Below, piece after piece: positions 1 through 44,555 of a DNA stretch of 64,000 nt. This DNA is from Craspedostauros australis (Eukaryota). Every line of letters starts with the position of its first letter. Position 1 is the stretch's first letter. Location: contig JALAGF010005483.1 in NCBI GenBank assembly GCA_030167865.1, forward strand, positions 1-64,000. Direction: 5' to 3'. The notes beneath the pieces were generated by a model that was given only the letters and a program-made list of their open reading frames with translations, ran no database searches and was not told the origin of the DNA. A program made the translations under genes and the position numbers.

Positions 1-1580
1 GCGAGACACTGGGATGGAGTTGAGCTGATCGAAGGAAGGCACATCATCAGTGACAGGGTTCACGTCGTGATTGCGCATCCAGTCGAGGGAGTTCTCGATG
101 TCGCGCGCACGTTCACGTGGAGTCTGACCTGGACGGGTTGGGATCATCTGGTCGATCTTCTTGAACTCTCCAGTTGGATCCAACGAATCAGGCTTGCCAT
201 TGCGCATCCAGTTCAACACGTCATCGATGTCCTTGCTGCGCTCCTCTGGGGAGCGACGAGACACTGGAATNNNNNNNNNNNNNNNNNNNNNNNNNNNNNN
301 NNNNGGATGCCAGCTTGTCGAATGGAACGTCGGCATCGCTGTCATCAGCATCGGTTGGCTTCGTGTTGCGCATCCAATCAAGGGCGCTCTCGATGTCACG
401 AGCACGATCCTCTGGAGTCTGGCTCTTCTTCTGTGGGAGCATCTGGTCGATCTTCTTGAACTCGCCAGTTGGGTCGTCCTCATCGTTCTTGCCGTTGCGA
501 GCCCAGTTCAGGACATCATCAATGTCCTTGGTGCGTTCTTCTGGAGAGCGGCGAGAAACTGGGATGGAGTTGAGCTGGTCGAAGGATGGGATCGAATCCT
601 CATCAGGCTTCAATCCCTTGTTGCGCATCCAGTCAAGGGCGCTCTCGATGTCTCGAGCACGGTCCTCTGGGGTCTGACCTGGACGGGTTGGCATCATCTG
701 GTCGATCTTCTTGAACTCGCCGGTTGGGTCATCCTCGGTATCTTTGCCGCTGCGCATCCAGTTGAGCACGTCATCGATATCGTTCGCGCGCTCCTCTGGA
801 GAGCGGCGGGACACCGGAATGGATCCAAGCTTGTCGAATGGGGCAACAGAATCGTCGCTGTCGTCGGGCTTCAGCCCCTTGTTGCGCATCCAGTCAAGGG
901 CGCTTTCGATGTCTCGGGCACGATCCTCTGGAGTCTGGCTCTTCTTCTGTGGGAGCATCTGGTCGATCTTCTTGAACTCGCCAGTTGGGTCGTCCTCATC
1001 GTTCTTGCCGTTGCGCATCCAGTTGAGCATTCTTTCGATATCCTTGCTGCGTTCCTCTGGAGAGCGCTTCGACACTGGGATGGAGTTGAGCTGATCGAAG
1101 GAAGGCACATCATCAGTGACAGGGTTCACGTCTTGGTTGCGCATCCAGTCAAGGGCGCTCTCGATGTCGCGAGCACGTTCTCGCGGGCTCTGGCCTGGTC
1201 GAGTTGGGATCATCTGGTCGATCTTCTTGAATTCGCCGGTTGGATCTTCGCCGTCATCCTTGCCGCTGCGCATCCAGTTGAGGACATCATCGATGTCCTT
1301 CGTACGCTCCTCTGGTGATCGGCGGGATATTGGCAACATGGAATGTGCTTGGAAAGATGGGTCGGTCTCGTCTTGGTCCACGTTACTGGGCTGGTTGCGC
1401 ATCCAGTCAAGGGCGCTCTCGATCTCCCGAGCACGATCCTCCGGAGTCTGACTCTTCTTCTGTGGGAGCACCTGATCGATCATTCTGAACTCGCCAGTTG
1501 GGTCCAAGTCATCGTCGTTCTTGCCCTTGTTCCGAAGCCAGTTCAAGATGTCATCGACATCCATGCCTCGTTCTTCAGGA
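1..1580 (-). repeat. Second coding tandem array, 255-261-bp unit with a ~516-bp higher-order period
   Basis: GTCGATCTTCTTGAA recurs near 151, 446, 701, 962 and 1217. PQKKSQ-type and PTRPGQ-type units alternate; GGCTCTTCTTCTGTGGGAGC is at 421 and 937. Confidence 0.9.
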
Positions 1581-4500
1581 GATCGCTTCGATCCTGGAAT
1601 GTGGGACGAGGGAGCCGGCAAGTCGCTTTGCGAAGCGGCAACGTCCAAGGGTGCTCCAGTGTTTCGGATCCAATCCAGTGCACGTTCGATGTCGTTTGCT
1701 CGATCATCCAACGATTGCTTGGGCTTGAATGGCAGCTGCTGGTCGATTTTGCGGAATTCTTCAGATGCGTCGTCATTTGTCGGTTTCCCGTTTCTGAGCC
1801 ATGTGAGTATCTGGTTCTTGTCGTTGAGCCTGTCCTCTGGTGTGCGCAGGGTCACTGGAAGCGACTTGATTGTCTTGAACGGCTTGTTCTTGGCAGTGGC
1901 GGAAGGTTGGACGCCTTGGTTTCGCATCCAATCCATGGCTGCTTCAATATCCTTCGCTCTATCATCTGGAGACTGGCGGCTCTTTCGTGGCATGGCTGCG
2001 TCGATCAGCTTCATCGTGCCACCAGGATCCATGTTGGCTGGTTTCCCATTTCTGATCCACTCAGCGATTTTTGAGGCTTCGTTGAACCGATCTTCAGGGC
2101 TGTTCTTCGTGGCTGGGACAAATCCCGCTGCTCTGTTGAACTCGTCCACGAAATCATCAGTGGGTTGGAGACCTCTGTTGCGGAGCCAGTCCAACGCCCC
2201 TTCTATCGCTTGCGCTCTGTCGCTGGAAGATTGGCTACGCTTGTGAGGAATGATTTGATCAACCTTGTTGAACTCTCCTGTTGGGTCATCGGAGTCTGAC
2301 TTTCCACCTCGGATCCAAGAGAAAATCTTGTCTAGGTCATCGGTACGTTGCTCTGGGGTACGCCGAGGCATGTTGATGCTTCCTTTCTTTTCGAACGAAT
2401 CAACGTCCTCGTCAGGCGTGCGGAATCCATTGTTTCGAATCCAATCAATCGCACCTTCGAGTTGCTTCGCTCTTTTCTTTTTCGACTGCTTCTTTGGGCG
2501 TGACATGAGTTGATCAACCTTCTTAAATTCGCCCACTGGGTCCAAACTTGCGGACTTCTGGTTGCGCAGCCAGTCCAAGATCTGCGCTTCAGTTCCAGCG
2601 CGTTCTTCCGGAGATCGCGCAGAAGATGGGAATGTGCCAAGCGGTTTGAAAGCTACGCCACAAGGCTCGTTCTCAGCACCCAGGTTTTGAGCTTGTCGCA
2701 ACCAATCCAATGCCCCCTCGATGCTACGAGCGCGATCTTCTGGTGATTCACCACGCTTCTTGGGAAGAACGGAATCCAATTTGCGGAATTCGCCAGTTGG
2801 ATCGAACAAGTCATCATCCTTGCCCTTGTTGCGCATCCAGTTCAGAGCATCTTCGGTGTCCTGGGCACGTTGCTCAGGGGTGCGAATTGAGCTTGGAATC
2901 ATCCCAAGCTTGTCCAACACCGATTCGGTATCATTGTCGTCTGGGGCCAGGTCGTTGTTACGCAACCAGTCCAATGCACCCTCGATGTCACGAGCGCGAT
3001 CTTCGGGGGACTGGCCACGCTTGATTGGCATCATGGCATCCAGCTTGCGGAACTCGCCGGTCGGGTCCAGGAGGTCATCGTTCTTGCCCTTGTTGCGCAT
3101 CCAGTTCAGGGCGTCTTCCATGTCCTGGGCACGTTGCTCAGGGGTGCGACGTGGTGCTGGGACTGCTCCGAGCTTCTCGAAGTCGAGGATGGCATCGACA
3201 CCATCAGCGCCAACGCTCTCATTTCTCAGCCAATCCATCGCGCCCTCGATGTCACGAGCGCGATCTTCAGCAGACTGGCCACGCTTGATTGGCATCATGG
3301 CATCCAGCTTGCGGAACTCGCCGGTCGGGTCCAGGAGGTCGTCGTTCTTGCCCTTGTTGCGCATCCAGTTCAGAGCATCTTCCATGTCCTTCGAGCGCTG
3401 CTCTGGCGTGCGACGGGACATTGGCACGGAGCCAATAGCATCAAAGCCTGGAATGGCATCGACATCATCAGGACCCACACCCTTGCTTCGCATCCAGTCA
3501 AGAGCACTCTCGATGTCACGAGCGCGATCTTCGGCAGACTGGCCACGCTTGATTGGCATCATGGCATCCAGCTTGCGGAACTCGCCGGTCGGGTCCAGAA
3601 GATCGTCGTTCTTGCCCTTGTTGCGCATCCAGTTGAGCGCGTCTTCCATGTCCTGTGCACGTTGCTCTGGCGTGCGACGGGACATTGGCACGGAGCCAAT
3701 GGCATCAAAGCCTGGAATGGCATCGACATCATCGGCACCCATACCCTTGCTTCGCATCCAGTCAAGAGCACCCTCGATGTCACGNNNNNNNNNNNNNNNN
3801 GACTGGCCACGCTTGATTGGCATCATGGCATCCAGCTTGCGGAACTCGCCAGTTGGATCCAAGAGGTCATCGTTCTTGCCCTTGTTGCGCATCCAGTTCA
3901 GCGCATCTTCCATGTCCTGTGCACGTTGCTCAGGGGTGCGACGTGGTGCTGGGGCGGAACCCAACTTGTAGAAGTCTGGGATGGCATCGACATCATCGGC
4001 ACCCACACCCTTGCTTCGCATCCAGTCAAGAGCACCCTCGATGTCACGGGCACGATCTTCGGCAGACTGGCCACGCTTGATTGGCATCATGGCATCCAGC
4101 TTGCGGAACTCGCCGGTCGGGTCCAGAAGATCGTCGTTCTTGCCCTTGTTGCGCATCCAGTTGAGCGCGTCTTCCATGTCCTTCGAGCGCTGCTCTGGCG
4201 TGCGACGGGACATTGGCACGGAGCCAATGGCATCAAAGCCTGGGATGGCATCGACATCATCGGCACCCATACCCTTGCTTCGCATCCAGTCAAGAGCACT
4301 CTCGATGTCACGAGCGCGATCTTCGGCAGACTGGCCACGCTTGATTGGCATCATGGCATCCAGCTTGCGGAACTCGCCAGTTGGGTCCAGAAGATCGTCG
4401 TTCTTGCCCTTGTTGCGCATCCAGTTCAGGGCATCTTCCATGTCCTGGGCACGTTGCTCAGGGGTGCGACGTGGTGCTGGGGCGGAACCCAACTTGTAGA

Positions 4501-7500
4501 AGTCTGGAATGGCATCGACATCATCGGCACCCACACCCTTGCTTCGCATCCAGTCAAGAGCACCCTCGATGTCACGNNNNNNNNNNNNNNNNNNNNNNNN
4601 NNNNNNNNNNNNNNNNNNNNNNNNNNGATTGGCATCATGGCATCCAGCTTGCGGAACTCGCCGGTCGGGTCCAGAAGATCGTCGTTCTTGCCCTTGTTGC
4701 GCATCCAGTTCAGAGCATCTTCCATGTCCTGTGCACGTTGCTCAGGGGTGCGACGGGACATTGGCACGGAGCCAATGGCATCAAAGCCTGGAATGGCATC
4801 GACATCATCGGCACCCATACCCTTGCTTCGCATCCAGTCAAGAGCACCCTCGATGTCACGGGCACGATCTTCGGCAGACTGGCCACGCTTGACGGGCATC
4901 ATGGCATCCAGCTTGCGGAACTCGCCAGTTGGATCCAAGAGGTCGTCATTCTTGCCCTTGTTGCGCATCCAGTTGAGCGCGTCTTCCATGTCCTGGGCAC
5001 GTTGCTCAGGGGTGCGATGGGACATTGGCACGGAGCCAATGGCATCAAAGCCTGGGATGGCATCGACATCATCGGCACCCATACCCTTGCTTCGCATCCA
5101 GTCAAGAGCACCCTCGATGTCACGAGCGCGATCTTCGGCAGACTGGCCACGCTTGATTGGCATCATGGCATCCAGCTTGCGGAACTCGCCAGTTGGGTCC
5201 AGAAGATCGTCGTTCTTGCCCTTGTTGCGCATCCAGTTCAGGGCATCTTCCATGTCCTGGGCACGTTGCTCAGGGGTGCGACGTGGTGCTGGGGCGGAAC
5301 CCAACTTGTAGAAGTCTGGAATGGCATCGACATCATCGGCACCCACACCCTTGCTTCGCATCCAGTCAAGAGCACCCTCGATGTCACGNNNNNNNNNNNN
5401 NNNNNNNNNNNNNNNNNNNNNNNNNNNNNNNNNNNNNNGCACGGAGCCAATGGCATCAAAGCCTGGGATGGCATCGACATCATCGGCACCCATACCCTTG
5501 CTTCGCATCCAGTCAAGAGCACCCTCGATGTCACGAGCGCGATCTTCGGCAGACTGGCCACGCTTGATTGGCATCATGGCATCCAGCTTGCGGAACTCGC
5601 CAGTTGGGTCCAGAAGATCGTCGTTCTTGCCCTTGTTGCGCATCCAGTTCAGGGCATCTTCCATGTCCTGGGCACGTTGCTCAGGGGTGCGACGTGGTGC
5701 TGGGGCGGAACCCAACTTGTAGAAGTCTGGAATGGCATCGACATCATCGGCACCCACACCCTTGCTTCGCATCCAGTCAAGAGCACCCTCGATGTCACGA
5801 GCGCGATCTTCAGCAGACTGGCCACGCTTGATTGGCATCATGGCATCCAGCTTGCGGAACTCGCCAGTCGGATCCAAGAGGTCATCGTTCTTGCCCTTGT
5901 TGCGCATCCAGTTCAGGGCATCTTCCATGTCCTGGGCACGTTGTTCAGGGGTGCGACGGGACACTGGCACGGAGCCGATGGCATCAAAGCCTGGAATGGC
6001 ATCGACATCATCGGCACCCATACCCTTGCTTCGCATCCAGTCAAGAGCACCCTCGATGTCACGNNNNNNNNNNNNNNNNGACTGGCCACGCTTGATTGGC
6101 ATCATGGCATCCAGCTTGCGGAACTCGCCAGTTGGATCCAAGAGGTCATCGTTCTTGCCCTTGTTGCGCATCCAGTTGAGCGCGTCTTCCATGTCCTGGG
6201 CACGTTGTTCAGGGGTGCGACGGGACATCGGGACGGAGCCAATAGCATCAAAGCCTGGGATGGAGGCGTCACTGTCGGCGATAATGCCCTTGCTTCTCAT
6301 CCACGACAAGACATTTGCCATATCCTCTGCGGTCTGCTCTGGTGATTCGTGTCCTTGTGTTGGGAGAGATGCGTGGATCTTTCGGAATGCTCCTGTCGGA
6401 TCACACTCATCATCGTTGGTCCCCTCATTGCGCAACCAGTTCATGATATTCGCAATATCCGAGGATCTCTGTTTTGAGTCTTGGTCCAGAAATTCCATGG
6501 ACTGCAGTTCTTCCAAAGAAGGGATTGCGTGATCACTGTCAGGGATCAAGCCCTGGGACCTCATCCAGTTCATAGAGTTGAGGATATCGCTTGCTCTGTC
6601 TTCGTCGCTTTGGCCAGGCTTGTTTGGCAACGAAGCATCGATCTTGGCAAACAACCCAGCGTGGTCAAAGTCTGGTCCTGCGACCTCTTTGTCGCTTCTG
6701 ATCCAGTTGAGGATATCATCGTATGTGCTCTCGTCGTATGCTGGTGAGCGATTCGTCGCAGAAAAATCAGTGTTCTTACCGAAGACGTCATCCTCGTCGT
6801 CGTCATCGAATCCTGGGGCCAGACCGCGGTTGCGCATCCACGACAGGCCGTCCAGAATCTGATTTGCGCGTTCGGTTTCACTCTGCCCGCTCTTCGCGGG
6901 CAAAGCGGCATCGAGCTGGGCGAACATGCCGGTTGGATCCAGCGAGTCGTTCTTGTCACCTCTCAACCAATTGAGAATATTCTGAAGGTCCTGATTGTTT
7001 CCAACGCCACCTGCCGCAGCGGCAGCTGTTCCGAATGGCATCGTGACCATCGCGTCGCTTTCGATGGTACCAAAGTCATCGAGGTCAACACCATTCTCGC
7101 GCAACCAGTTCAACGCATTTTCCATGCCCTTGGCTCTGTCCTCGGCATCTTCGCCTTCCTTCTTGGGAAGCATGAGATCGAGTTTAGAGAAAACGTCGGC
7201 AAAGTCGAGGACATTGTCGTTGCTTTCGCCTCTGAGCCAGTCGAGGGCCGCGTCAGTGTCGGACGATCTCTGCTCAGCTGTGCGGTACTCGATGGGTGCA
7301 TCGCCCGACTTGGGGAAGAATGTGATTCCGTCCTCCGGATCCTCATCAACAAGGCCTTGGGAACGCAGCCAGTTGAGCGCGCCCTCCATATCTGCGGCCC
7401 TTTCATCGAACGATTCATAATCCCCTGGTGGGATCAAATCTTCAAGTGCGGCGAAGGGCGAGATCGGATCGTTATCGGTTCCACCCTCACGAAGGAAGTC

Positions 7501-10500
7501 GAGAATGTTGTCGAGGTCTTCTTTTCTGGCCTCGGCAGATCTCGCCTTGATTGGCATCGAAGATGAGAGCAGGTCGAAGGTGGGGACGAATTCGTTGTCG
7601 TCAACATCCAGTCCCTGAGATCTGAGCCAGCTGAGAGCGTTTTCCATCTCCTTGGCTCTGTCTTCATCGGATTGACCGCTCTTCTTTGGTAGAAGCGCGT
7701 CGATCCTGTTGAACTTGGAGTCGTCGTCGTCGTCATCGTCGTCAGCGCCACCCTTACCTCTCAACCATGCCAGTGCGCCTTCGAGGTCATCTGCTCTCGA
7801 GCCGGCAAGGTCGCCTTCGATCTTGCCAAACTCATCGAATTGGATATCAGAAGTGATGTCGTCACCCACATCCGTGCCATTCTTGCGCAACCAGTTGAGC
7901 GCGTTGGACATGGCCTCTGCGTCTCGTTCCTCCTTCGATTTGACGCCAAAGCCAGGCATCATCGAGAATGGATCGTCGGTGTCGTCCAAGGACTCGGCAT
8001 CATGGTTGCGGAGCCAGTCAAGGGCGTTGGCCATTTCCTTGTTCCTCTCGTCGGGGCTGCGTCCGAGTGCATCGATGGTGCCAAACTTCTCATCCAAGCC
8101 AGAAAAGTCTGGAGACTCCTGATCGAAGTCTGCGCCGTTCTTGCGAAGCCAGGCCAAAGCTCTCTCCATCTCCTTGGCCTTTCGCTGTTCTGCAGTACTC
8201 ATGCCGGAGAGGCCGAGTTCAGGCGAGTCGTCTTCGTCGATGTCGTTCAGTGAAGCTGGTTGTTCGTTCTTGCGCAGCCATCCGAGCGCGCTCTCGAAGT
8301 CGGAGTCCTTGCCCAGACCTCCTGGGATGGACATGCTGTCCAAAGACTCGAAGCCTGCGAGGGATGGGTCGGCATCGGCATTGTCTCCCACCGAGGCATT
8401 GTTCTGACGGAGCCAATCCAAGGATCGGGCCATTTCGTTGGCGCGCTTCTGTTCTGCGGTTTCGGGGAGAACCGGTACGAACGATGAAAGGTCGTCAGCC
8501 TTGGTGGATTGATCATCAATGCCTGGCACGGACGACTGTTGGCGCGAGCGCATCCAGTCAAGTGCGGAGGCGAGGTCGCTGTTGGTTTCCCCCGTCGGGA
8601 TCCCTCCTGCGATCTTCTTGAAGCTCGCGACCGACATGGCAACCGACATTTCGTCGTCCATGTCAAGTTCGGCGTCATTGGTTCTCAACCAATCAAGCGC
8701 GTTCGCCATCTCTGCGGCACGCTTCTCCTCCTCCGTCATCGCACCAAACGCTCTGGATGCCATCGGCGTGGCGGGACCTGCAGAAGCTTCGTCGTCATCG
8801 TCCGCTCCGCGCTTGCGGAGCCAGTCGAGGGCGCTGCCGAGATCACTTGAACCTCCGGCGGCGCCACGTCCACCGGCCTTGCTGAGCACGGAGTCGATCT
8901 TCTTGAAACTTGCGACAGTCTCATCGTCGACGTCGGTTTTGGTCCGGAGCCAGTTGAGGGCGTTGTCTAGACTGGGGGGACCATCGTTGTCGGCAGACTT
9001 CGGCATGAGAGAGTCGATCTTCTTGAAAGTGGCGACGGAGAATGCGACCGACATGTCGTCGTCCATGTCGAGCTCTGCGTCGTTGTTCTTCAGCCAATCC
9101 AACGCGCTCGACATCTCCTGGGCACGCTTCTCTTCTTCGGTCAGTGGCCCGGACGGTTTCTTCACGGTCTCCTTCGGCTTCGGAGCTGGTTGGTTCTCGG
9201 AGTTGTACCAGGTGAACGTGTCGTTCAGCTGCTTGGCCATGTCCAGATCCATTGCAAGGTGGTTGTTGCGGAGCCAGTCGATCTGTCCGTCCTCGGACAT
9301 GCCGCGTCTGATGTCCGCCCAGAGCTTGGCGAGTGCGTCGATCTTCTTGAGCTTCTCCTTGTCGGATTTGCCCATGCCAGCATCGTCCATGGTGAACTTC
9401 TTCTTTCTCCACCACGAAAGCGCCTCCTCGATTTCCTTGATGGTCTTCTTGTCCTTGCCCTTCTTACCACCCCACGCCTGGAGGATCTTGCGGAGCTTGC
9501 TGGCCTCGGGCTCGTCGGAATCGTCGAGGTGGAATCCCTTGCTCTTGTTGCGGAACCAATCGAACACGGTGGTGATCTCGTCGGCGATCGTCTCCAAGTC
9601 TTCGGGGCTTGTGTCCGTCTTCTGCCAGAAGTGGGCAAGCTGTTGGGCTTTGACGTATTTGTCGGCATCCTCCATCGCCTTGTCGATCTTGATGTTCTTG
9701 CCGTTTCTCTTCCACCAGCCCATGGCATCATCGAGCTCCTTCGCGGTTCTCTTCGCCTCCTTGGCAGAGAGATGCTTGAACTCGTGCTCGGCAAGACCGA
9801 GGTCGCTGTGCCATTCGGAGACGGCATCGAAGAGGTGCTTTTGACGTGTCATGGCAGGAACGGCGTCGAGACGCATCTCAACATCGTCGTAGTCCTTGCC
9901 CTTGTTCTTCCACCAGTTCATGGCGTTGATCATGTCCTTCACAGTCTTCTCGGACTGCTCTGAATCGAAGTTGTTTGCATTCATGCGGCACCATTCCATC
10001 ATGCAGTCCTTGAGGCGCATCAATTCCTGGCGCTGGGCTGGTGTGATGTCCATGCTTGCAAAGTCGAAGTGTTGCCCGTTTGCGCGCCAAAGATCGATTG
10101 CGGAGACAAGCTCCTTGGTGAGGGCCTTGGAACGCTTCCAAGTGAAGTCCTGGCCGATCTCACGAGGCTTCCAGATGTCCAACAGTCCCTTGATGTTGTT
10201 CACGTTGACGATGTCGAAAGGCGAGGCCGTTTCGATGTCGAACTTGTCGCCGTTCTTGCGCCACCAGGACAGGGAGCCCAGGATGTCATCCGCGACATCG
10301 TCAGCGGCGTCTTCGTCGAGACTTTCGGCTGCGGTCAAGCGCCAATCGATCATGGCCTGTTGAAGTCGGCGGAACTTCTCGCCTTCCTCGCCCTCCATCT
10401 CAAACACGGCAGTGTCGTACTTGTTGCGGCGGAACATGATGAGGGAATCCGCGATGTCCTTCAAGTTCTTGGAGGTGCAGTTTGCTTTGTATCCCCAAAC

Positions 10501-12552
10501 GGACATGAGGCCCTGAGCCTTCTTGAACTTGGCAACCTCTTGCGGGCTGGCCGCGTCAAGGTTGAGCTTGTATCCAGTGCTCCTGTACCACTGCATGACC
10601 TCCGTCATCTCCTCTCCCATCATCTTGACCGCACGAGGGTCCAACTCGTCGCGGCGAAGCTGGATGAGGGCGTGCTTCACCTTCTTCAAGGCTTCGGCCT
10701 GGAGCGGGTCAAGGTCTCCCACCGGGGTGTCCTTGTACTTGGCCCACATGGAAAGTGCGCTCTTGATCTCCTTCATGCGCTGATCCAGAGGATCGCCGTG
10801 CTTGAACCCGAAGTGTGCCAAGAGGCTCTGCGCCTTGCGGAACATCTCCTCCTCCTCCGCCGTGGCGGCCATGGGGTCGTAGGTTTCGGCGTTCGCGCGC
10901 CACCAGGAGACGGCATCCTGGATATCGCGAGCGCTGTTGTCTTCGTTCAAACGCCAGTCCACGAAGAGGTCCTGCACACGCTGCATGGGGTCGGACTTGT
11001 AGAACGGATCGTTCAGGTCCAAATCACCGGACATGAACAGCCCGAGAGAGCCGAGTATGTCCTTCGAGAGCTGCTGGGCTCGTTTAACGTCGTCAGACGG
11101 ATCGAAGCTCTCCCAGTTCTGCTGGGGCAAGTCGACGAGGTCCCACGACCCGAAGAGTTGATTGACCTTCTTGAACTTGGCCTGTTCCTGTTCAAATTCC
11201 TTCATGTCCTCGACGTGCTCGTCTCCTCTCTTCTCCCACCAGGTGAGCGAGTCGCGGATCTCGCGTGCCTTGCGCTCAGCCTCGTTGCCGATCTTGTCCC
11301 ACTTGCTCATGGCGTTGCTGACCTTGATGGCCTTCTTCACCGTGGGGTCGTAGTCCTCGGACGACGGCGGAACGTAGTCCTGGTTCATGGAGCACCACTC
11401 GACGATCTTCTTCATGCCTTCGATGCCACCGAAGTCCTTACCGAGACTTGCCGCGAGGTCATCGGCGTCGTCAGCGGCGTCGTCGACGGTGTGGTTCCAC
11501 CAATCCACGGCATTGCGCATCTTCTTGGTGCGCTTCTCCACTTCGGCGGTTGGGAGGTCCGCCTTTCCGGTCTTGGAGGCCTTCCCGCCTCCGCCTTCGG
11601 GACCAGGTAAAGCCGAACGCAGCTCTCGCTCTTTCGCGTTCTCCTCCTGCTTGGCCTTGAGCATGCTCATGAGGTCAGGCATCTCCTCGGTCTTGAACTC
11701 CGTCTGGTTGGAGAAGATGGACATGCCATCGTCCACCGTGGACGTGTCATCTATCTCCCACCAGTTGTCACTGCCGGAGGTCTTGGCCTTCTTGGCGGCC
11801 CCTCCTGCCTCCTTCGGCTTGCTGGCCCCTCCAGATCCTCCAGGATCGGTACCGGCACCGTCACCTGCACCGTCTTCCTCCGCGGCTTCTGGCCTGGTGA
11901 GCCATGCCATCGCGCTCGCCATCTCCATGGCACGTTGCGTGGCCTCGTCCGCGTTGGACTTCGCCTTGACAGTCGAAGATCCCTGACCGGGGTACTTCGC
12001 GGACATGGATGTTCCGACCGAGCGGTCGTCATCGAAAGCCGATTGCTTGGGACCAGCCCCCAACATGCGAGTCAAGCTCGCCATGAGGGAAGGTCCTTGG
12101 GGTGCCTCCTCCGGGCGCGGCGGCGGCGATTCGGGGTGTTGAATCAGCGCCGGCGGCGGCCCGATTGGCACGTCCACAGGCTCCGGAGCCGGTGGCTGCG
12201 GCGGTGCGGGCTGATGGCGACCCGCCACTCGCACAGGCGAAGACACCGCAGCCGCAGGTCTGGACCCACGCTGCGCGCCCGGTCCAGGGGCCTGTCCCTG
12301 CTTCGGCTTGCGAAGCTCGGGTGGGATCTCCATCCCAGGCCCGAAGATCGGCGCCGGACGTCTTGGTCGGAACAGCTCCGGCGGCGGATCGGGTGCCCTG
12401 AAGGTTGCGCGGCGGTTAGGCGGCACATAGGGCATGCGGGTGGTCACCACAGGCACGCGGCGACGTTCGCGGTCACGGCGTTGCTGCTCGATGCGCTCGG
12501 CAGCCTGCCTTTCCTCCTCTTCCTCCTCGGGTCCAAGTGTCCACCAAGCCAT
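1..12552 (-). CDS. Giant Trp-motif tandem-repeat protein of unknown function (>4,100 aa, 3' end outside window)
   Basis: ORFs 4426..12552 and 221..4549 encode the same repeat and are separated only by N-gaps, which account for the frame changes. Bases 270..1 also translate without a stop (IPVSRRSPEERSKDIDDVLNWMRNGK...DQLNSIPVSR). The N-terminus is Pro-rich with no signal peptide, followed by the recurring motif RAxE/D(I/M)ExAL(D/N)W(M/L)R. Confidence 0.9.
2790..6260 (-). repeat. Near-identical coding tandem array, 264-bp (88-aa) unit, at least 13 copies
   Basis: GACTGGCCACGCTTGATTGG occurs at 3009 and 3273 (264 bp apart) and continues with that period. Unit: RDIEGALDWMRSKG...RRTPEQRAQDMEDALNWMRNKGKNDDLLDPTGEFRKLDAMMPIKRGQ. 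The array contains four N-gaps, so copy number is uncertain. Confidence 0.95.
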
Positions 12553-12624: not shown

Positions 12625-12975
12625 TTGTCTGTCCTGTCCTGTCCTGTCTTGCGATGTGCTTTGCTTTGCTGTGTTGCGTTGCGTTGCGTTGTGCTGTCTC
12701 GTGCTGTCTCGTGCTGTCCTGTACGAGTAATCGAGCGTGCCGAATACCTATACTCTTCTACACGTTCCTACACTTTCCTACACTACCTACACTACTACAC
12801 TTCAAAGCTATCAATACGAAGCTGGGATGGGTCCTGTCCTGCGTTGAATCGATGAAAAGACTTGTCTTTCCAAGATGCCGTCGTCGTCGTCGTCGTCGTT
12901 GCTGTTGCTTTCGCCGTTGCTGTTGCTGTTGCTGCTGTCGCCAAAGGCTTCGGTAGCTCCTGCTCCTGCTCTTGC
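12625..12975. repeat. Cluster of simple repeats ((CTGTC)n, (GCGTT)n, (GTC)n, (GTTGCT)n) upstream of the giant gene
   Basis: Directly visible short tandem repeats. Confidence 0.8.
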
Positions 12976-29837: not shown

Positions 29838-32618
29838 CTACTTGTCTCTCTCATCGACGAACGAAAGTTCCCAAAAATCAACAGGTGTAGATGGCGGCGA
29901 GAATTGTGCGCGATGTCTGCAGTGGTACTGGAAGTCCTTGTCCTTTCCAAATGCCTTAGCGCCCTTGCCTTCCATCAGAGCACGATAGAAGTCAGCACAC
30001 TCCCTGCATTCGAAGGTTGGCATCTTCTTGCGCTCTGCGCGTTCTCTGACAACTTCGTTGAACTTGAATGCTGGGTCAGGGTCTGGATGTGACTTTGGCT
30101 GCGGTGACGACTCTGGATGTGGCTGCGGTGATGGCAGAGGCACCGGCATGCACAACGACAACATCGACGGCTTGCCTCGTGGTGATCGGGTTTCCCGCAA
30201 CGCGCTGTGGCTCTTGCCATCCATCCGCATCGGCATCTTCGGTTGCTTTTTTGGGTTGTGCTTGACTTGAGCTGGTGCGGGCTTGGCAAACTTTGCAGAT
30301 GTTGATCTCTTTGTTGGGGTGTTTGTGCTTCTGTTCGACTTGTATGGATTGATGATGGTTGGCTTCTTCGGCGTAGCGTTTGCCCTTCTCTTCGTTTGCG
30401 GTGTTGCGACCACGCACTGAAGCTTGCTTTGCCTGTATGTAGCCTTCGGAGCGTTCACAAAGTCTCTCGCGTTCTGATTGCAGATCCAGCCGTCGCTGTT
30501 GCTCACTTCCTTTGATTCCTTTGCAGGTTGCAGCATCCGTTGGATGAACCGCCTCGTAGCCGGAGTTGTTTCAGCCTTGCTATCGTTGCTTTTGCTGCCA
30601 CCGCCATCATCGCTGGTGTTGCTGTCAGCGCCTTCTCTGGCATTGTCCCTCTTTGGGTTGGCCACTTCGCAGGATGGCGGGACAGCTCCATGGCCATCTT
30701 CTTGATGCAACGAGACGGAATCGGACGCCTTTGCTTGCGATGGCTGATGTTGAACCTTGCACACATTTCCAACGGTTTGAGACGTCGTTCTGGACATCGC
30801 GCAGTTATCGACTTCGTCAGTGGTGATGAATTCTGGTGTGCCGTTGGTGGGAGGGGATGTTGCGACACCATTGGCAGCACCATCGCCAGCATCACCATCG
30901 CCACCGCCATTCGCTTCGTCAGCGTCGTTGCTTGTGTTGGATTTGAGTTTAGTGACATCGCTGTTGAGTGTACACACGCTGGGATCATCACACTCCACGG
31001 CATGGTTGTTATCATCTTCATGATTGGCGCGAACACTTCTGCTTTTGGTGGCATTGGCATTGGCGTTGTTGTTGACGCTGTTGATGGAAGGGAGGAGGTT
31101 GCGTCGCAGCATCTTCACCGTCCGCTTTTGATGCGAAACAGCGACGGGGTTACACTTGGCGAGGTTGTCCAGCGGGGCTGTCGGAGTCTTGTAGATCACA
31201 GTGGAATGACGCCGTGTATTTCGGGGCTGGTCAGGGATGACGAATTCGTTGATGAGCGTTGATTGGAGTGTGCTGATCCAGGGCACCATCCCAAGAGTTT
31301 GCGTCTGCGTTTGTGTCTCTGCGTCATCGGGGTATTCATCTTCTGGGCTGACCGTTCTTGGCACGGGTGGGAAGATTGGGCGCAACGGGCGGAAGTCGGG
31401 CGTCACGATCTGGCTTTCGCTGTTTTCTGCATTTGTGATTGCATGCAAGGCAGTGTCACCGTCAACAGGAAGAGATTGGTTCTGTTCGTGAGTGGATTTT
31501 GACGCAGAGGCGACGGATGGCTTGTGTGGTGTCGTCAGTGGGTGTGGTGGAGTTGAAATCCGAAGCGGGTATTGCTGAGACGTGGGATTGATGCGACACT
31601 GAACCGGTTTGGACAACGGTTGCTGCAGCCGTCGCTCCCGATCTTCCGTCGCTGTTGCATACTGTTGGAATGTGGATTTGATGAGGCCGTACTTGGACTG
31701 TACCTTCGCATACTGCTCGTACGCTAGAGCAGCCAAAGGCCAACCAAACAAGATGCAGTAGAGCTGAGGGATGGAATGGATGGCCGCACTAGTGTGAGTG
31801 GCTGTGCTTGCGCCAACGGAGGCAGCAACGTCACGAGGCTCTTTGAGAGATGGCGGTGCCACCGAACGCGATCGGAGATGCTGCTGACGCGGAGACTGTC
31901 GTGCTCTCCACGTCTTGCTTCTGCCATTGGGATCATCCCTGTCACTGTCACTGTTGCTGTCACTGTCGCCATTGGTGTAATGATCACCACATTCGTCATT
32001 GCGGTGTTTTCGCCGATTCGAGAGCCTCCGCTGGTAACGTGATGCCGCAGGAACGGACCGTCGCGGTCTCCGTGGTTCCTGGCGTGATTTCTCTGGTTGG
32101 TCTATTTGTTCCTGTTGCGCTTGCATCCGACGGCGAATCTCACGTTGGGCCCAAGGGTTCGGAAGGGATGGAAAGCGCAACGGCGGTTGCTGGGGACAAA
32201 GTTGCCCTTGGCTTGTTGCATCGCTCGCACGAGTGGAATCCTGATTTCGCTGCGGACATCGTTTGCGACAATGCGAAATCACGGGCGATGAAACGCATGG
32301 TGCAGATGGGATTGCTTGTGGCGCATGCTGGGATGCTGAGGAAGGTGGAAGCAATGGCACGGGCAATGACGAAGGTTGCGGCGTTACGGCGCGCCGTCTT
32401 CGCTTTCTGTTGTGCTTGCAGTCAGGCTCGTCTTCTTCTCGTTGCTTTGGACGTTCGTTCTTGTGGCTGCGTCGTCCAACGCGCTGCTGCTCATCATGGG
32501 ATGATGATGACACCGGCAGATCAGGAAGCGGCGTGTCGGTCTGCCTCTTCTTGACGCGTCCACGGCGTCGTATCTCAGCGACGATGTCCAGAGGCATGGT
32601 GGCTCTTGTTCTCCCCAT
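29838..32618 (-). CDS. COM1: CtIP/Sae2/Com1 DNA end-resection factor
   Basis: The C-terminus FKFNEVVRERAERKKMPTFECRECADFY...CRHRAQFSPPSTPVDFWELSF carries the CxxC, RHR and TPxxFW motifs of the SAE2/CtIP C-terminal domain. The rest is low-complexity; the start codon and possible in-frame introns are uncertain. Confidence 0.88.
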   Translation of the reverse strand: MGRTRATMPLDIVAEIRRRGRVKKRQTDTPLPDLPVSSSSHDEQQRVGRRSHKNERPKQREEDEPDCKHNRKRRRRAVTPQPSSLPVPLLPPSSASQHAPQAIPSAPCVSSPVISHCRKRCPQRNQDSTRASDATSQGQLCPQQPPLRFPSLPNPWAQREIRRRMQAQQEQIDQPEKSRQEPRRPRRSVPAASRYQRRLSNRRKHRNDECGDHYTNGDSDSNSDSDRDDPNGRSKTWRARQSPRQQHLRSRSVAPPSLKEPRDVAASVGASTATHTSAAIHSIPQLYCILFGWPLAALAYEQYAKVQSKYGLIKSTFQQYATATEDRERRLQQPLSKPVQCRINPTSQQYPLRISTPPHPLTTPHKPSVASASKSTHEQNQSLPVDGDTALHAITNAENSESQIVTPDFRPLRPIFPPVPRTVSPEDEYPDDAETQTQTQTLGMVPWISTLQSTLINEFVIPDQPRNTRRHSTVIYKTPTAPLDNLAKCNPVAVSHQKRTVKMLRRNLLPSINSVNNNANANATKSRSVRANHEDDNNHAVECDDPSVCTLNSDVTKLKSNTSNDADEANGGGDGDAGDGAANGVATSPPTNGTPEFITTDEVDNCAMSRTTSQTVGNVCKVQHQPSQAKASDSVSLHQEDGHGAVPPSCEVANPKRDNAREGADSNTSDDGGGSKSNDSKAETTPATRRFIQRMLQPAKESKEVSNSDGWICNQNARDFVNAPKATYRQSKLQCVVATPQTKRRANATPKKPTIINPYKSNRSTNTPTKRSTSAKFAKPAPAQVKHNPKKQPKMPMRMDGKSHSALRETRSPRGKPSMLSLCMPVPLPSPQPHPESSPQPKSHPDPDPAFKFNEVVRERAERKKMPTFECRECADFYRALMEGKGAKAFGKDKDFQYHCRHRAQFSPPSTPVDFWELSFVDERDK

Positions 32619-33257
32619 CGTTCTTGCCGTGACTGCCAATACTAGCACGTGTATGGTGTACGTAGCACGAAGGTCTCGCGGTGATGGTCTATTGATTTAT
32701 GGATGTGATCGTTGGCTTCACTTCCTGGAGAACATGGTGGGAACACCACTCCGGCTCAATGTTGTCGGAATGGAGAGATTGGGACACCACCTCCGATGTT
32801 TGTCGCCATGCCACGCCATGACACAACAGAGAACTTCCACCACAAAACTCGAATCACCTCTTGGCATCAACTTTTGCCACGGTCGTGACTCTCTTGGCCC
32901 GTTTGAATCTGGCGGCAATTTTGGGCGCGAGGGTTCTAATCGATCGAATCAAACACGCGCAATCGCGCGTTACGTGTTTGGACCACGGGAACAACCTCAG
33001 CAAACACACAATCTGAACTACTCGTGGAGAGTACACGTTGTTGTGGAGCAGAACAGACCAGAGCTGGGCACATCAAAGGAGCATGTACGAGTAAACGTAG
33101 AGTGTACCATATTTGTACATTGTCATGTATGGCATAATATTATAGAATACTCTATTCTATATATGTTATCATATTGTATTGTACAATAGTATTCCGCGCT
33201 ATTTTACGCGCGCACTTGCAACTCGCTGCCGTACCACACCAACACTTCATGTCATCT

Positions 33258-39856: not shown

Positions 39857-41185
39857 TCACAGCAGCGGACGTTGGTAATCGTACGAGGAAGAGTACTCGT
39901 ACTCGCATGGTGGCATGAATAGTTCTTCCAGCGCAAAGAGACTGCCTTGTGCCAAGCCGAAGACATCCGGAGAGCTACTGTTGCTACCACCAACGGCACT
40001 TCTGCATGTCACCCGTGGGTAAATGCCAACCAATTCATTCATCCCAACAGCTGTTTCAGAAGGCAATGCTGTCGCTGTAGCTATAGAGGCAGCTGTAGTT
40101 GTATCAAATGGTGTGGATGGTACCGCAGGCAAGCGTGCAGGCAGCTTTACTTCTTGCAAAGCTCGCATCAGTTCGTCTTCGCTTGGTGTCATGGAGGCTG
40201 ATATAATTCGCTGACATTGCTCTCGTGAAGCCCACACGGCACATTCCACTTCCTCCGGGCAAAGATCGAGTTCATCGCCGATGCCAGCCACGCCGTGATA
40301 CCTCACTGAAACCTTCCCTCGACAATACACAACAATATGATGAGCCTTGATTGGCGTACCCGCTTCGGACATTGTGGGATAGACCGACTCCCAGATGCAA
40401 GTGGGTTGGATGGAACCACGATCCATGATCAAACCAGTCTCTTCCTTCACTTCCCTGCAAACCGCATCTAGGATCGACTCGTTCGGTTCCAGGGTTCCGC
40501 CCGGAAGCACCCACGCGCCTGGGAATGATCGCATGTAGCGAGGACGACGCGTGATGAGGATTCGTCCATCGTCATCCATCGGGATCCCGACCACCGCCAG
40601 CTGAACGAACTCTTTCCGCAACGATCCGTCGGCTACTGCCTTTTCTGTTGCCCGGCGTGCAGCATCTTGGGTCGTTGGGCATGGCATAGAGCTCATCGTT
40701 GGGAAGTCCCGTGCACGACCGAATGGAATCCACTGCCGCGTCTGCTGCTGCTGCTGCGCCATCATGGAGGTATCATTCTTCCCGGTTGCGAGGCTAGTAT
40801 CCCCGGCATTTGGATCCGTCTGTGATGGTTGCTGCGAGTGGGAGAAAGAATGATCAGGACTCGGGGCGCACTGTTCCAGACTCAGGGCATCGCTGACAGA
40901 AGCAAACGATGGGGGCAAACGTGTTAGCATTCTATCATAATGAGACGGTCGTCGTTGCCGCTTCTGCTGTTGCTCCTGCTCACGCCGTTGCTGCGATGCG
41001 GACTGACAGACCGCATAGTGCAACACACGGTTATCACTCGTGTGGCTGCTGTCTGTGACGAAAGGATCTGTTCTGTCGACCTGCGCTTGTCGCAAAGCAT
41101 CAAAGACAGACATGCCGAATCGACACGGCTGCGAGCCAACGAAGACTTGTGCCTTGGGAGCATTGCGCATGAACGGGACGATCAT
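39857..41185 (-). CDS. NUDT17: Nudix hydrolase, NUDT17-like
   Basis: ILITRRPRYMRSFPGAWVLPGGTLEPNESILDAVCREVKEETGL contains the Nudix box. WESVYP and HHIVVY are typical of the NUDT17 group. Confidence 0.8.
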   Translation of the reverse strand: MIVPFMRNAPKAQVFVGSQPCRFGMSVFDALRQAQVDRTDPFVTDSSHTSDNRVLHYAVCQSASQQRREQEQQQKRQRRPSHYDRMLTRLPPSFASVSDALSLEQCAPSPDHSFSHSQQPSQTDPNAGDTSLATGKNDTSMMAQQQQQTRQWIPFGRARDFPTMSSMPCPTTQDAARRATEKAVADGSLRKEFVQLAVVGIPMDDDGRILITRRPRYMRSFPGAWVLPGGTLEPNESILDAVCREVKEETGLIMDRGSIQPTCIWESVYPTMSEAGTPIKAHHIVVYCRGKVSVRYHGVAGIGDELDLCPEEVECAVWASREQCQRIISASMTPSEDELMRALQEVKLPARLPAVPSTPFDTTTAASIATATALPSETAVGMNELVGIYPRVTCRSAVGGSNSSSPDVFGLAQGSLFALEELFMPPCEYEYSSSYDYQRPLL

Positions 41186-41707
41186 TGCGATTGTTGTGTG
41201 TGCGCATGTGCATGCCTTTTTTCGTTCTGTTCTTATGGGGCGAATTGATGGCAAAGATACCATACTATCGTACTCGCACCACCACAGTACGACTAACATA
41301 GTCGTACACCTACAAATACCGGCGTGCGACTACTCGCAGTTGTATTTTAGATCGTCTCATGGCTCGTACTACAATGAAATCAAGGCGCCACTCGTTTTGA
41401 GAGTATTCCAGGTCGCACAAGAAGCTCTGCTGCAGCATGTTGCTCAATTGCATCTCAAGAAGGCATTCCAATACGTCATGAAATGACCACCACTTCTAAC
41501 ATGCTGTGCACATATAATACTAGTACTTTTACCCTACTGGATTATGCTTGACAATGGTTAGCGCCCTTCCCTCTTGTCGACCATCGATGGCACTTCGCAT
41601 GCTTTGTGTAAAAACTTCTCTCTTTTTGCCAAACACACTCACACTCACTCACTCATGGAGGGGAGTGTAGAGCAAGCAGTCCTCCTCAACACCACGAGTG
41701 GTTGAGC

Positions 41708-43858
41708 TCATGGACTCTGAACCTGCGGGACAGCCCGCACTGCTTCCATCATGGCTGGATCGGACATGGCCTTCCTAGCTATGCTTTGCATCTCTGGATC
41801 CTCCATGAGTTCAGAGTTGGGATTGTTCAGTGCCTTCTTCGCCATCAGGTGCATGTCCGGGTCGTTCAGGAGTCGCCTGACATCCGAGTGAACCTTGCCG
41901 CCCTTCTGGTTGTTCTGCTGCTCCAGCTTCAGCTTGGCCTTTGCAAGGTACGACTTCGACGCTGCGTTCTCAGGATCGTGCTGCAATGCGGATGTGTAGG
42001 CCCGGATGGCGCCCTTGAAGTCGTTCATGAAGAATCGCGACAGCCCCAGCCTGGCGTGGGCCTTGCCGTAGGAGGGCTTCATCTTCAACGCCTGTTCCGA
42101 ATCATTGGCCGCCTCCGCGTATCTTTCGAGGTAGCACAGTGCTGCCGCACGGTTTGAGTAGTAGACATGAGAGTGCGGTCCCTTCGGGCTCAGGTCCAGG
42201 GCGGCCGAGTAGGCCTCGTACGCCATCTTGTACTCCCTGTTGGCCATGTGCGCGTTACCTCGCACCTTGTGCTTCTCTGCTTCCTTCAGATCGAGCTTGG
42301 CGTCGTAGTGCGTGCGGGTATCCTGCGACGATTTACGACCTCTCTGCGACTTGTCCCATTCGGAAACGACCGAGAAGCTCTGCCCAGCCAGGCTCATGTT
42401 GTCCACGGCATCACCGCTCGCTGCCAGTCGCTTGGCCGCCTTCTCTAGGTAGGATTTCGAGCTTTTGTTATCGGGTTCGTATTTCAAGGCGACCGTGTAC
42501 GCCTCCATCGCAAGTCTGTAGTTTCCCAGAAGGAAGTGTGCAAGTCCAAGACGCGCATGGGCCTTGCCGTAGTTCGGCTTCAGGGCGAGGGAACGCTCCG
42601 AGTCCAAGATCGCCTCGTTGAACTTCTTCATGCTCAGCAGCGCCGCTGCTCGATTGCTGAAGTAAACGTGCGAGTTGGGACCAGATGGGCTCAGCTTGAG
42701 CGCCTTTGTGTACGCATTGGCCGCCTCCTGGTACTCCTTCTTTTGCATGTACGCGTTCCCATTGGACTTCAGCTTCTCCGCCTCCTCGAGATCTTCTGGA
42801 TTGACCGCTGGAGCTGGTTCTGACGACTTCGATCCGCGGCCGGAAGGTGCCAGTCGTTTCGACAAGTCTGAAACGGCAGAAGGTTGTGAAGCTGCGCGTG
42901 GTTGCTGCTGCTGTTGCTGATGATGGTACGCCATGGTGTGGGCACCCTCGTCATCCTCTCCGCGGCGTTGACGCACCGAGCGGATGCGATCCATCCGACG
43001 TTGCTGCACCAAATCGAAGCTTTCCGAGACCACAGAAGCCTGCATGTCGCCCGAGCGTGCCTTTGATGCCAGCTTAGTGCGGAATTTGGCCACGACCTTC
43101 GAGAAGCGGTCTTCGTACACCTCCTTCTTTCGCGCGATGCGGTGGGCCTCGTCCGTTGGATCCGCTCGCGGTGTCTCGTTGTCCGGGTCGCGGAAGAAGC
43201 CCTTGCTCTTGACAGCGTGCACAAACTGCTCGAACAACGGCGATGTGATCATCTCGCTTTCCGCTCTGGCTCTGCTCCTGCCTTGCAGTGCGGAGAGACC
43301 CGCAGCCGCGATCTCCGCCAGACCGAGCGGGCCATGCAATGATGGGCCACTGGCCAGCCCGTTGAGCGGGTACTGACGATGGAGGTTGGATGGATGGCTG
43401 TCGTCGTAATCGTACCACCCGTAGTTGTGCTCCTGATTCTTCTCCTCCTCGTGCGGGCTCTCGCTGTACAGCACTTCCCTCGTCATTGTCTCGATGTCAG
43501 GGAAGTGCGTGACGTCGTCGAAGATGTCCGGATGCGGCAGCTCCTTGCGGAAGTCTGAGATCTGCTCTCGCGTCCTCTCTATGAAGGGATCGTTGCTGTT
43601 GACGACATGCAGCGTCGGCGGCCCCACGAACGCCCTGTTGAGGCTGTAGATGGCAACGCTGAGATAGTCTGCGTGCAGTCCCTCCGCCTCGAACAGGTCC
43701 TGCGGATCGTAGGAGCGGCGCAGCTCGCGGAGGTAGTCCAAGCAGAGGAGCACCATCTCGGCCTCCGACGGGATGTCGACCTCATCCATCATCTCGTCCA
43801 TGCCGCCGTCTTGTTGCTCGTTCATCCTTGATGGTGGTGGCTGACGATATTCCTCCAT
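41708..43858 (-). CDS. SGTA/Sgt2-like co-chaperone with two TPR triplets and a C-terminal STI1/DP region
   Basis: N-terminal VLLCLDYL...LSVAIYSLNRAF resembles the SGTA dimerisation domain. Two blocks AEKxKxxGN...VY(F/Y)SNRAAA...YGKAHARLG; Met-rich DPxM repeats at the C-terminus. Confidence 0.85.
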   Translation of the reverse strand: MEEYRQPPPSRMNEQQDGGMDEMMDEVDIPSEAEMVLLCLDYLRELRRSYDPQDLFEAEGLHADYLSVAIYSLNRAFVGPPTLHVVNSNDPFIERTREQISDFRKELPHPDIFDDVTHFPDIETMTREVLYSESPHEEEKNQEHNYGWYDYDDSHPSNLHRQYPLNGLASGPSLHGPLGLAEIAAAGLSALQGRSRARAESEMITSPLFEQFVHAVKSKGFFRDPDNETPRADPTDEAHRIARKKEVYEDRFSKVVAKFRTKLASKARSGDMQASVVSESFDLVQQRRMDRIRSVRQRRGEDDEGAHTMAYHHQQQQQQPRAASQPSAVSDLSKRLAPSGRGSKSSEPAPAVNPEDLEEAEKLKSNGNAYMQKKEYQEAANAYTKALKLSPSGPNSHVYFSNRAAALLSMKKFNEAILDSERSLALKPNYGKAHARLGLAHFLLGNYRLAMEAYTVALKYEPDNKSSKSYLEKAAKRLAASGDAVDNMSLAGQSFSVVSEWDKSQRGRKSSQDTRTHYDAKLDLKEAEKHKVRGNAHMANREYKMAYEAYSAALDLSPKGPHSHVYYSNRAAALCYLERYAEAANDSEQALKMKPSYGKAHARLGLSRFFMNDFKGAIRAYTSALQHDPENAASKSYLAKAKLKLEQQNNQKGGKVHSDVRRLLNDPDMHLMAKKALNNPNSELMEDPEMQSIARKAMSDPAMMEAVRAVPQVQSP

Positions 43859-44555
43859 CGTCTTGCACGGTGCTCGCGCCAGAGTCCTCTTGTGTTGCTG
43901 CTGCTGTTGCTGCTGCTGCTGTTGCTGCTGTCTGTGTTCTTCGAGATACGAATGCCAATTCGAGTACTCTGCTGGTGGTCGTGGTGCTGATGGTGTCTTG
44001 CGGATTGAATGCTTCTGCTTCTGTTGCTCGACGCAAGTCCACTCAACTCAAGTGAGGCAAAGTCACGGCAGCACGGGGCAAGGTAAGACGAGGTAAGACG
44101 AGACAAGTCCGGGAAGAAAGTTGTGGTGGGATACGTGCGCGTCTTTCTGTCTTCACTCACACCACCTCGTCTCTTGCGGCAACTGATGTCGAGCCAATGG
44201 TTTCCAATGATACCACACGCCACACGAACAAACTGAGGTTTCAAACCTCGCCTTCGTGACGCAACGCATGGTTAATACTATACAAAACGTCTATTTAACG
44301 GATAAATGGACACAACCTCGCTAACTTACAATCGGGCAATGGTTGCCTGCTGCGGAAGAACGGAAAGCACATGTATGTCAACGGATGCAAATAGCCGAAA
44401 AAGGACCGTTGGGCGTGAGGCTGATTGATTTGAGAAATTCGAACGCAGTCTTCCATCACAAGGCGAGATTTCGAACTGGGATGTGATGAACCTGGAGAAC
44501 GGTAACTTGAGTGATAGTATAGTAGAGTATGATAGTACACATTAAGGCAAAAATC

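Follow-up and report, generated by a model that had tools for sequence, protein, structure and literature searches.

Here we describe a gene for a giant repeat protein of the diatom Craspedostauros australis, found on the minus strand of a 64,000-nucleotide stretch of DNA (positions 1 to 64,000 of contig JALAGF010005483.1, GenBank assembly GCA_030167865.1). This whole stretch is called the window below and corresponds to C5483:1-64000 of G000, our name for this 65.9-Mb assembly of 6,734 contigs. A genuine diatom protein of very large size is encoded here, and the window holds its N-terminal two-thirds, i.e., 4,127 or more residues. One gene very likely encodes, in this order, a helical head, a long series of three-helix beads, a second repeat of 43 amino acids (aa), one membrane segment and then a domain of leucine-rich repeats (LRRs). 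Judging from the sequence, the product is probably a single-pass type II membrane protein (N-terminus in, C-terminus out) with a huge cytosolic tail. The initial annotation of this stretch had regarded it as a giant intracellular protein as a whole; this appears appropriate for the repeats, which are probably in the cytosol, and not for the gene product in full, whose C-terminal end is very likely formed by a membrane segment followed by an LRR domain that is disulfide-capped and lies beyond the membrane.

The frame starts with the ATG at position 12552 and reaches base 1 in six N-free segments, each free of stop codons in one frame (2157+208+254+258+1160+90 = 4,127 resolved codons), and the more than 4,100 codons counted previously are therefore correct as a number. 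They do not form the single readable open frame then assumed, because five runs of N break it and the reading frame moves over two of them (4577-4626 and 271-304), as expected when gap sizes inside a repeat array have been guessed. Owing to the N-runs and frame moves, the true length, the copy number and introns within the gaps cannot be read; the earlier statement that the gene has no intron thus holds for the six segments, and the gaps could hide introns. Since the window starts at the first base of the contig, the gene runs off the contig at base 1. The choice of the ATG at 12552 is supported by the N-terminus M-x-W-W-T/S-L-G, which is conserved in homologues and may possibly be a membrane-interface or partner-binding tag. 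Differences between repeat units fall mostly at silent sites: the closest neighbouring units (two pairs) have 12 synonymous versus 2 non-synonymous codon differences, and the mismatch at codon positions 1, 2 and 3 is 0.38, 0.25 and 0.56 over all pairs of 20 units. The repeat array of the window is therefore genuinely coding and under purifying selection. Neither a hydrophobic segment nor a signal peptide was present in the two long segments of the window that were measured (best 19-residue Kyte-Doolittle values, KD19, of 0.93 and 0.68), in agreement with the earlier view on the signal peptide.

The true repeat unit is 88 aa long and has two unequal halves, and this pair, rather than the 44-aa half-unit proposed earlier for an HMM, forms the structural unit. 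Each bead consists of a Trp helix, a short F-K-K-I-D helix, a P-K-K-x-G-Q loop and another Trp helix. A strict pattern for the core motif captured 76 of the 107 Trp residues, so that the former estimate of about 80 Trp repeats is fair; 68 core-motif Trp residues form a regular run with 41-47-aa spacing from residue 1153, which has one double step where Phe stands for Trp. A hidden Markov model (HMM) built for this repeat detected 33 near-full beads when applied to the window, as against none in two reversed and two shuffled controls. The motif had also been described as uniform from about residue 210 to the window edge: a copy is indeed present at residue 217 and the two-part unit is regular after about residue 1580, while a divergent Trp-rich region (about 330-1120) and lone helices (about 1140-1580) lie between them. 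The divergent region, which is single copy in G000 and shares 27-54% identity with 18 homologues, gives weak matches to the bead HMM and is an older, divergent form of the repeat; its AlphaFold2 model has 31 helices (mean predicted local distance difference test, pLDDT, of 71; predicted TM-score, pTM, of 0.35) with no confident overall arrangement. Two blocks of the array, with periods of 264 and 255 bp, have expanded recently.

Beads in G000 are confined to four contigs (C5483, C6428, C2546 and C5407), and overlaps lead from the window to two of the others. Between bases 270..1 of the window and C6428, 264 of 270 and 246 of 249 bases agree, and C6428 in turn is identical to the beginning of C2546 (362 of 362 bases). 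A single open frame of 795 codons makes up C2546 and passes, at its end, into the second, Pro/Asp-rich repeat. The only contig matched by the C2546 tail elsewhere in the genome is C6556 (seven of seven matches), which is also the best G000 match (55%, E 4e-83) of the membrane/LRR end of the homologue P0017. The C6556 frame contains, in order, about 20 copies of the 43-aa repeat (an array interrupted by two N-gaps), an acidic region, a single hydrophobic segment, the LRR domain and a stop codon. We infer the C2546-C6556 join and the contig order because homologues on single contigs show the same domain order. The protein would then have at least 6,481 residues (counted without C6428 and all N), with no fewer than 41 three-helix beads and some 20 copies of the Pro/Asp-rich repeat of 43 aa. 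By eye, the 43-aa repeat and the 88-aa unit share W-x-R, F-D-K/R and S-I-P; derivation of the former from half of the latter was tried with a half-unit HMM, which beat the best of 20 shuffles in only two of four regions and by a few bits, and is not supported.

The C-terminal domain on C6556 was assigned to LRR families with clear scores (LRR_1, 75.8 bits against a cut-off of 20.6; LRR_8, 54.6 bits). It is about 370 aa long with a net charge of -37 and about seven plant-type LRRs (seven core motifs), and its best PDB relatives are plant receptor ectodomains (113 sequences at E<=1e-5). At ten alignment columns, Cys is conserved in 11 or more of the 12 ectodomains, and the giant has 6 Cys among the 6,157 residues that precede the hydrophobic segment and 10 among the 374 that follow it; this distribution, together with the lack of a signal peptide, argues for the N-in, C-out topology. 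In each of the LRR-ending proteins measured, no 19-mer is more hydrophobic than the segment itself; in C. australis it is rich in Ala and Gly, with a KD19 of 1.82 as a hydropathy measure. At least 6,100 residues precede it in this gene and 1,322-4,747 in full-length homologues. About 10 kb downstream lies a short type II LRR paralogue (L031), possibly a local duplicate or a co-receptor, which shares 42-47% identity with the ectodomain of the giant and has a textbook membrane helix (KD 2.92, KRR before it) that aligns with the segment of the giant. No kinase family was found in the segments scanned or in the full-length homologue P0020.

Word-based searches matched 18 of the 8,000 candidates of similar length that were scored, 2 of 2,710 longer candidates and 6 of 7,999 shorter ones, to which cluster members were added, and a HMMER scan with the repeat profile gave 468 representatives at E<=0.001. 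According to our own pattern classes, the 150 representatives listed comprise 127 of the giant type, 13 of the IQ type described below and 10 others. Eight proteins in five 90% clusters are complete from their M-x-W-W/F start through the LRR domain at the end, each on a single contig or transcript: P0017 (2343 aa), P0019 (1705), P0020 (4754), P0023 (4797), P0026 (5126), P0039 (4804), P0046 (4893) and P0048 (4763). In addition, the metagenome locus L034 has 5,073 N-free codons from bead 1 to the stop. Names were obtained for 10 of the 26 word-search matches and 20 of the 150 listed representatives, and every named relative is a raphid member of Bacillariaceae: Cylindrotheca fusiformis, C. closterium, Nitzschia sp. 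Nitz4, N. inconspicua, Pseudo-nitzschia pungens (taxid 37318), one Psemu1 model (a tag which we take to be P. multiseries) and two Bacillariaceae entries from metagenome-assembled genomes. There was no name from Naviculales among these 30 proteins, which does not imply absence from centric, araphid or naviculoid diatoms. Two relatives are transcriptome peptides by name (MMETSP0017 and MMETSP1061), indicating that relatives are expressed.

The C. australis ectodomain is the most divergent among those of the giants, with 43-49% identity to the others, which share 53-85% with P0017. In an N-terminal tree (a quick search with several rows at approximate bounds), the C. australis gene groups with P0069 (100), apart from the Cylindrotheca and Pseudo-nitzschia groups. 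Three entries (P0008, P0009 and P0010) stop at about 1,950-2,020 aa, where non-repeat or hydrophobic text begins just past a bead helix; these ends look like gene callers entering an intron, and some relatives seem to be intron-bearing there, unlike the C. australis gene. A variant repeat with a short middle helix, L-A-x-L-A-G-I/V-P, occurs in P0171, P0018, P0019, P0150 and P0214, and P0171 (2,270 aa) is composed almost wholly of it. Several homologues bear a precomputed tag of PF26170, a family that the Pfam library searched here does not contain.

An AlphaFold2 model of two units, built from 53 related aligned rows, predicts helices at positions 3-18, 30-37 and 46-62 of each unit (pLDDT 82-90) joined by a linker with pLDDT below 50, and the pTM is 0.40. 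The prediction favours beads on a string over continuous solenoid packing, and thus one of the two forms that had been suggested, beads and a helical solenoid, fits the model and the other is not favoured by it. Taken together with the isolated copies in the IQ proteins, the model suggests that the bead is an autonomous module. Two Trp-x-Arg pairs, Asp-Pro-x-Gly, a Phe and Arg49 are invariant or nearly so. Helices 2 and 3 are linked by a basic loop (+2.5); the other loops and the helices are acidic, and the helices are amphipathic (hydrophobic moment 0.29-0.43).

No characterised repeat family matches the full repeat length, consistent with the earlier failure to recognise TPR, HEAT, spectrin or ankyrin: Pfam gave partial matches of 11-34 residues, mostly to one UBA helix. 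Neither TPR, HEAT, armadillo, ankyrin nor spectrin matched a unit among the 25 of 47 families shown, single units gave nothing, and among the matches listed the solenoid-type fragments were PknG_TPR (32 of 340 positions, 12 of 53 members) and PPR_2 (3 of 53). WH2 and nebulin profiles matched neither the whole bead nor one of its halves at E<=10, a level at which HMMER filters drop most weak matches. The idea of a resemblance to WH2-like helices was lowered, there being no profile match and the helix being modelled inside a three-helix unit, and so was the idea of helices lying in the membrane surface, the helices being net acidic. Foldseek gave 0 of 77 matches at E<=0.001 for the bead model and none at this threshold for the model of the N-terminal region, which is no proof of a new fold; in VIA the best values (Z 4.7, rmsd 3.1, 61 aligned for the bead; Z 6.6, rmsd 4.5, 75 aligned for the N-terminal region) were not above background. 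A PDB sequence search with the repeat profile reached E 0.18 at best, two ESM Atlas queries returned no usable match, which shows neither absence nor novelty, and among 99 pattern matches in prokaryote genomes there were no relatives.

The bead domain is common to a second family, that of giant IQ-motif proteins. The C. australis member (L023/L024), encoded on C5407, has IQ-like motifs (by eye), lone Trp helices, about 12 copies of an acidic repeat P-S-x-L-Q-K-Y ... P-I-x-W-V-V-D and four isolated C-terminal beads, and it has conserved relatives of 2,200-2,800 aa, in Nitzschia among others. Among 25 proteins scanned, all 10 above the Pfam IQ cut-off carry three to six isolated C-terminal beads. 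Diatom proteins with the automatic name "IQ calmodulin-binding motif-containing protein" (e.g., KAG7343005.1 and KAG7372097.1) share the bead with the giant and differ from it in having no membrane segment or LRR domain and in that their beads are isolated in low-complexity sequence. Isolated divergent beads (seven in P0099) were also observed in P0099 and P0154, where they lie in low-complexity sequence with neither IQ motifs nor LRRs.

Several known systems resemble the giant in part. MRM2, from the type II LRR receptor-like proteins found in pennate diatoms, has a short N-terminal intracellular part, a membrane helix and an outer LRR domain (10.1101/2024.04.15.589526, in which Schulze et al. 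2015 is cited). With the MRM2 family (HOM02SEM009752) the giant shares plant-type LRRs and the lack of a kinase, and probably also the N-terminal intracellular part, a single membrane helix and the outer position of the LRRs; MRM2 has about 50 intracellular residues, and this short N-terminus is not found in the giants, which have 1,300 to more than 6,000 residues there, with two repeats without a Pfam family. LRR families are expanded in Seminavis (PMC7335047).

The same LRR type is found in plant LRR receptor kinases and receptor-like proteins (GSO1, FLS2, HSL1 and TMM). Plant LRR receptors are type I proteins with a signal peptide and the LRRs at the N-terminus; the giant has the reversed order and only about seven LRRs. 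A functional analogy may be drawn to tandem actin-binding repeat proteins (nebulin, WH2 arrays) and to giant linkers of membrane and cytoskeleton (nesprins, the apicomplexan glideosome-associated connector), with a likeness in great length, many near-equal units, variable copy number and putative tether role. The giant has no sequence match to these families. Within the coverage of our literature search (subscription journals and most supplements lay outside it), no description of the giant protein or its repeat was found.

As to the function, we tentatively propose that the giant is a multivalent tether between the LRR domain at the surface or in a lumen and a cortical polymer, our preferred reading of the sequence, for which we infer the binding partners and the cellular site as follows. 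The LRR domain would bind a protein or glycoprotein beyond the membrane, i.e., at the cell surface, in the raphe canal or in a vesicle lumen. The beads, with their invariant Trp and Arg residues and basic loop, would attach at low affinity and high avidity to a repeating acidic structure of the cortex, for which F-actin bundles, or a protein coat covering them, are the most plausible candidates. An extensible spacer of a few hundred nanometres would be provided by the acidic linkers together with the 43-aa repeats, and the soluble IQ-motif bead protein may dock on the same cortical structure under the control of Ca2+/calmodulin. Simple arithmetic with 3 nm for each bead, 3-9 nm for each linker and 41 beads gives an estimate of 250-500 nm, to which the second repeat would add up to about 400 nm. 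Bead number is not constant, ranging between 4 and 36 among full-length relatives and reaching 44 in the partial relative L034; this fits avidity and reach and makes the fixed ruler that had been suggested for this protein unlikely.

Several observations weigh against the tether and the architecture on which it is built. No read or contig overlap joins C2546 and C6556. KD19 is 1.6 or more in five of nine independent giant-type sequences and 1.38-1.50 in the other four, the residues preceding the C. australis membrane segment are acidic and not basic, and its ectodomain has no N-glycosylation sequon. In a quick tree, this ectodomain pairs weakly (0.85) with the short paralogue and not with the other giants. 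Lastly, the net charge of the bead helices is -0.3 to -1.4, and an acidic polymer would accordingly be bound via the one basic loop only.

More specific roles can be imagined for the same topology. In a gliding cell, the giant would be the transmembrane connector of the adhesion motility complex: myosins or an adaptor would grip the beads, the LRR domain would hold a trail strand and the linkers would give compliance, so that 30-45 or more beads would couple the LRR domain elastically to the raphe actin-myosin system with the IQ protein as a clutch. The membrane-spanning link of this complex "has yet to be identified" (10.1101/2023.03.27.533254), similar statements are found in PMC11420354, PMC13104615, PMC13056149 and 10.1101/2023.03.06.531300, and no connector is named in the consulted passages of PMC12452890; the slower movement of cells relative to their myosins has been interpreted as compliance by the authors of PMC11420354, and the IQ partner family agrees with Ca2+ control of gliding (PMC7335047). 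The topology and the raphid nature of all named relatives also suit this role, which we nevertheless consider unlikely, both for the connector in general and for the elastic version with a clutch. A universal connector would be expected in Naviculales, from which none of the 30 names came (a weak point); an LRR domain of 370 aa would, by estimate, extend over only about 10 nm, far less than is needed to span the raphe alone; at least 151 matches to this LRR type in G000 indicate that the ectodomain is not motility-specific; and no bead was found on contigs bearing myosin heads. Bacillariaceae is the family with a fibulate canal raphe. The restriction of named relatives to this family is instead what would be expected if the giant spanned the membrane of the silica deposition vesicle, with a lumenal LRR domain and beads on the cytoskeleton, and positioned, e.g., the canal raphe, the keel or fibulae during wall patterning, for which the topology and the acidic ectodomain are equally suitable. 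This possibility, somewhat less remote to us than the connector, is weakened by the C. australis copy being the most divergent one; no known silica-associated protein motif was seen, though none was searched for.

A kinase-less LRR receptor for cell-cell recognition or mechanosensing, with the tail as a signalling scaffold having one docking site per bead, deserves mention because pennate LRR proteins with an inner N-terminal tail, a membrane helix and outer LRRs have been tied to mating (10.1101/2024.04.15.589526), and the ectodomain of the giant resembles plant receptors and has the short paralogue 10 kb off. However, MRM2 has the aforementioned tail of about 50 aa, 4,000-6,000 aa of repeats under purifying selection exceed signalling needs, and the bead is also found in proteins without a membrane segment, and therefore we think this role improbable. 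The initial annotation had tentatively placed the protein as a scaffold at the cytoskeleton or membrane cortex, which is close to a soluble or peripheral cortical scaffold whose hydrophobic segment does not span the membrane and whose Trp helices lie in the membrane surface. The marginal hydrophobicity in four of nine sequences and the amphipathic helices speak for such a scaffold; all ten conserved Cys lie beyond the segment, the segment aligns with the clear membrane helix of the paralogue, and the helices are net acidic and confidently predicted only as a three-helix unit, which leaves it quite unlikely. There remains the UBA domain (PF24899, PF22562), a small three-helix unit with an A-L-x-W-L helix as in the bead, which would make the tail a polyubiquitin trap. 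UBA_DHX29 matches 34 and UBA_7 28 of the 53 alignment members (E up to 0.1), and the summed score exceeds the cut-off on the 1,160-aa segment. Each match, however, spans 11-22 of 48-55 profile positions and covers that one helix, one bead alone reaches 15.7 bits where the cut-off is 27 (positions 31-41 of 55), and the helix lengths of 16, 8 and 17 do not fit. The loop of Met-Gly-Phe type, a feature of UBA domains, is also missing, and no UBA fold was among the fold-search listings for the bead model, where its absence does not exclude a UBA fold. A polyubiquitin trap is thus highly improbable.

Pennate diatoms are known to have many type II LRR membrane proteins, and those described have tiny inner tails. 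What is new here is a conserved inner tail of 0.5-0.7 MDa, composed of a domain without a family that is also present in a second family of giant IQ-motif proteins; the two families point to an unrecognised cortical system in raphid diatoms. The gene is a single-copy, taggable candidate for the membrane link required by the actomyosin gliding model, or for a link in canal-raphe patterning. Such a gene is easily missed because assemblies break at it (here into four contigs, with seven or more gaps) and its database entries are mostly fragments named "hypothetical protein". Coordinates of the giant gene and of other features are listed below.

Table. Features of the giant gene, the window and related loci; positions are those of the window unless a contig is named, and residues are those of the giant protein
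Feature	Position	Strand	Remark
Conserved start, M-x-W-W-T/S-L-G	12529..12552	-	Shared by most homologues reaching their N-terminus
Low-complexity head, residues 1-330	11563..12552	-	P 13.9%, G 10%; lone Trp helix at 217
All-helical Trp-rich region, residues 331-1120	9193..11562	-	Conserved, single-copy
Lone A-L-x-W-L-R helices and partial beads, residues ~1121-1580	7813..9192	-	41-48 aa apart, acidic linkers
Regular 85-90-aa units	1..7812	-	Three-helix bead and ~24-aa flexible linker; open at contig end
Young block of 264-bp units	2961..6263	-	Neighbours 87-95% identical in nucleotides; four of five assembly gaps inside
Second young block, period ~255 bp	364..1504	-	Carries on into C6428 and C2546
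N-runs within the frame (five)	271-304, 3785-3800, 4577-4626, 5389-5438, 6064-6079		
50-N assembly gap	4577-4626	.	Frame shift across
C-terminal part of the giant, 1,636-codon frame	C6556:20074-15164	-	Open to contig end
Short type II LRR paralogue (L031)	C6556:4844-2958	-	~10 kb downstream of giant
IQ-like bead protein (L023/L024)	C5407:16918-24855	+	2,645-codon intronless frame
Kinesin motor gene, 1,659 codons	15897-20876	+	PF00225 E 1e-69; divergent from giant, 3.3 kb away
SAE2/CtIP-like gene	29838-32696	-	Pfam
NUDIX gene	39857-41329	-	Pfam
Hop/STI1 TPR protein gene	41708-44047	-	Pfam
Glycosyltransferase 61 gene	47795-49405	-	Pfam
Open frame, 668 codons	53357-55363	-	No Pfam family above cut-off
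Vms1/ANKZF1-type release factor gene	59223-61259	-	Pfam
Open frame, 606+ codons	62182-63999	+	No Pfam family above cut-off

Since this organism is a eukaryote, the neighbourhood of the kinesin gene and the giant is weak evidence. Immediately upstream of the start codon, window positions 12640-12934 contain short simple repeats with periods of 6-25. Other LRR genes of the type found in the giant are present on C3280, C4522 and C4180 within open frames 2,000-2,700 codons long, some of them having mucin-like stalks rich in Thr, Pro and Ser, and the small contig C1467 has three actin matches in both orientations.

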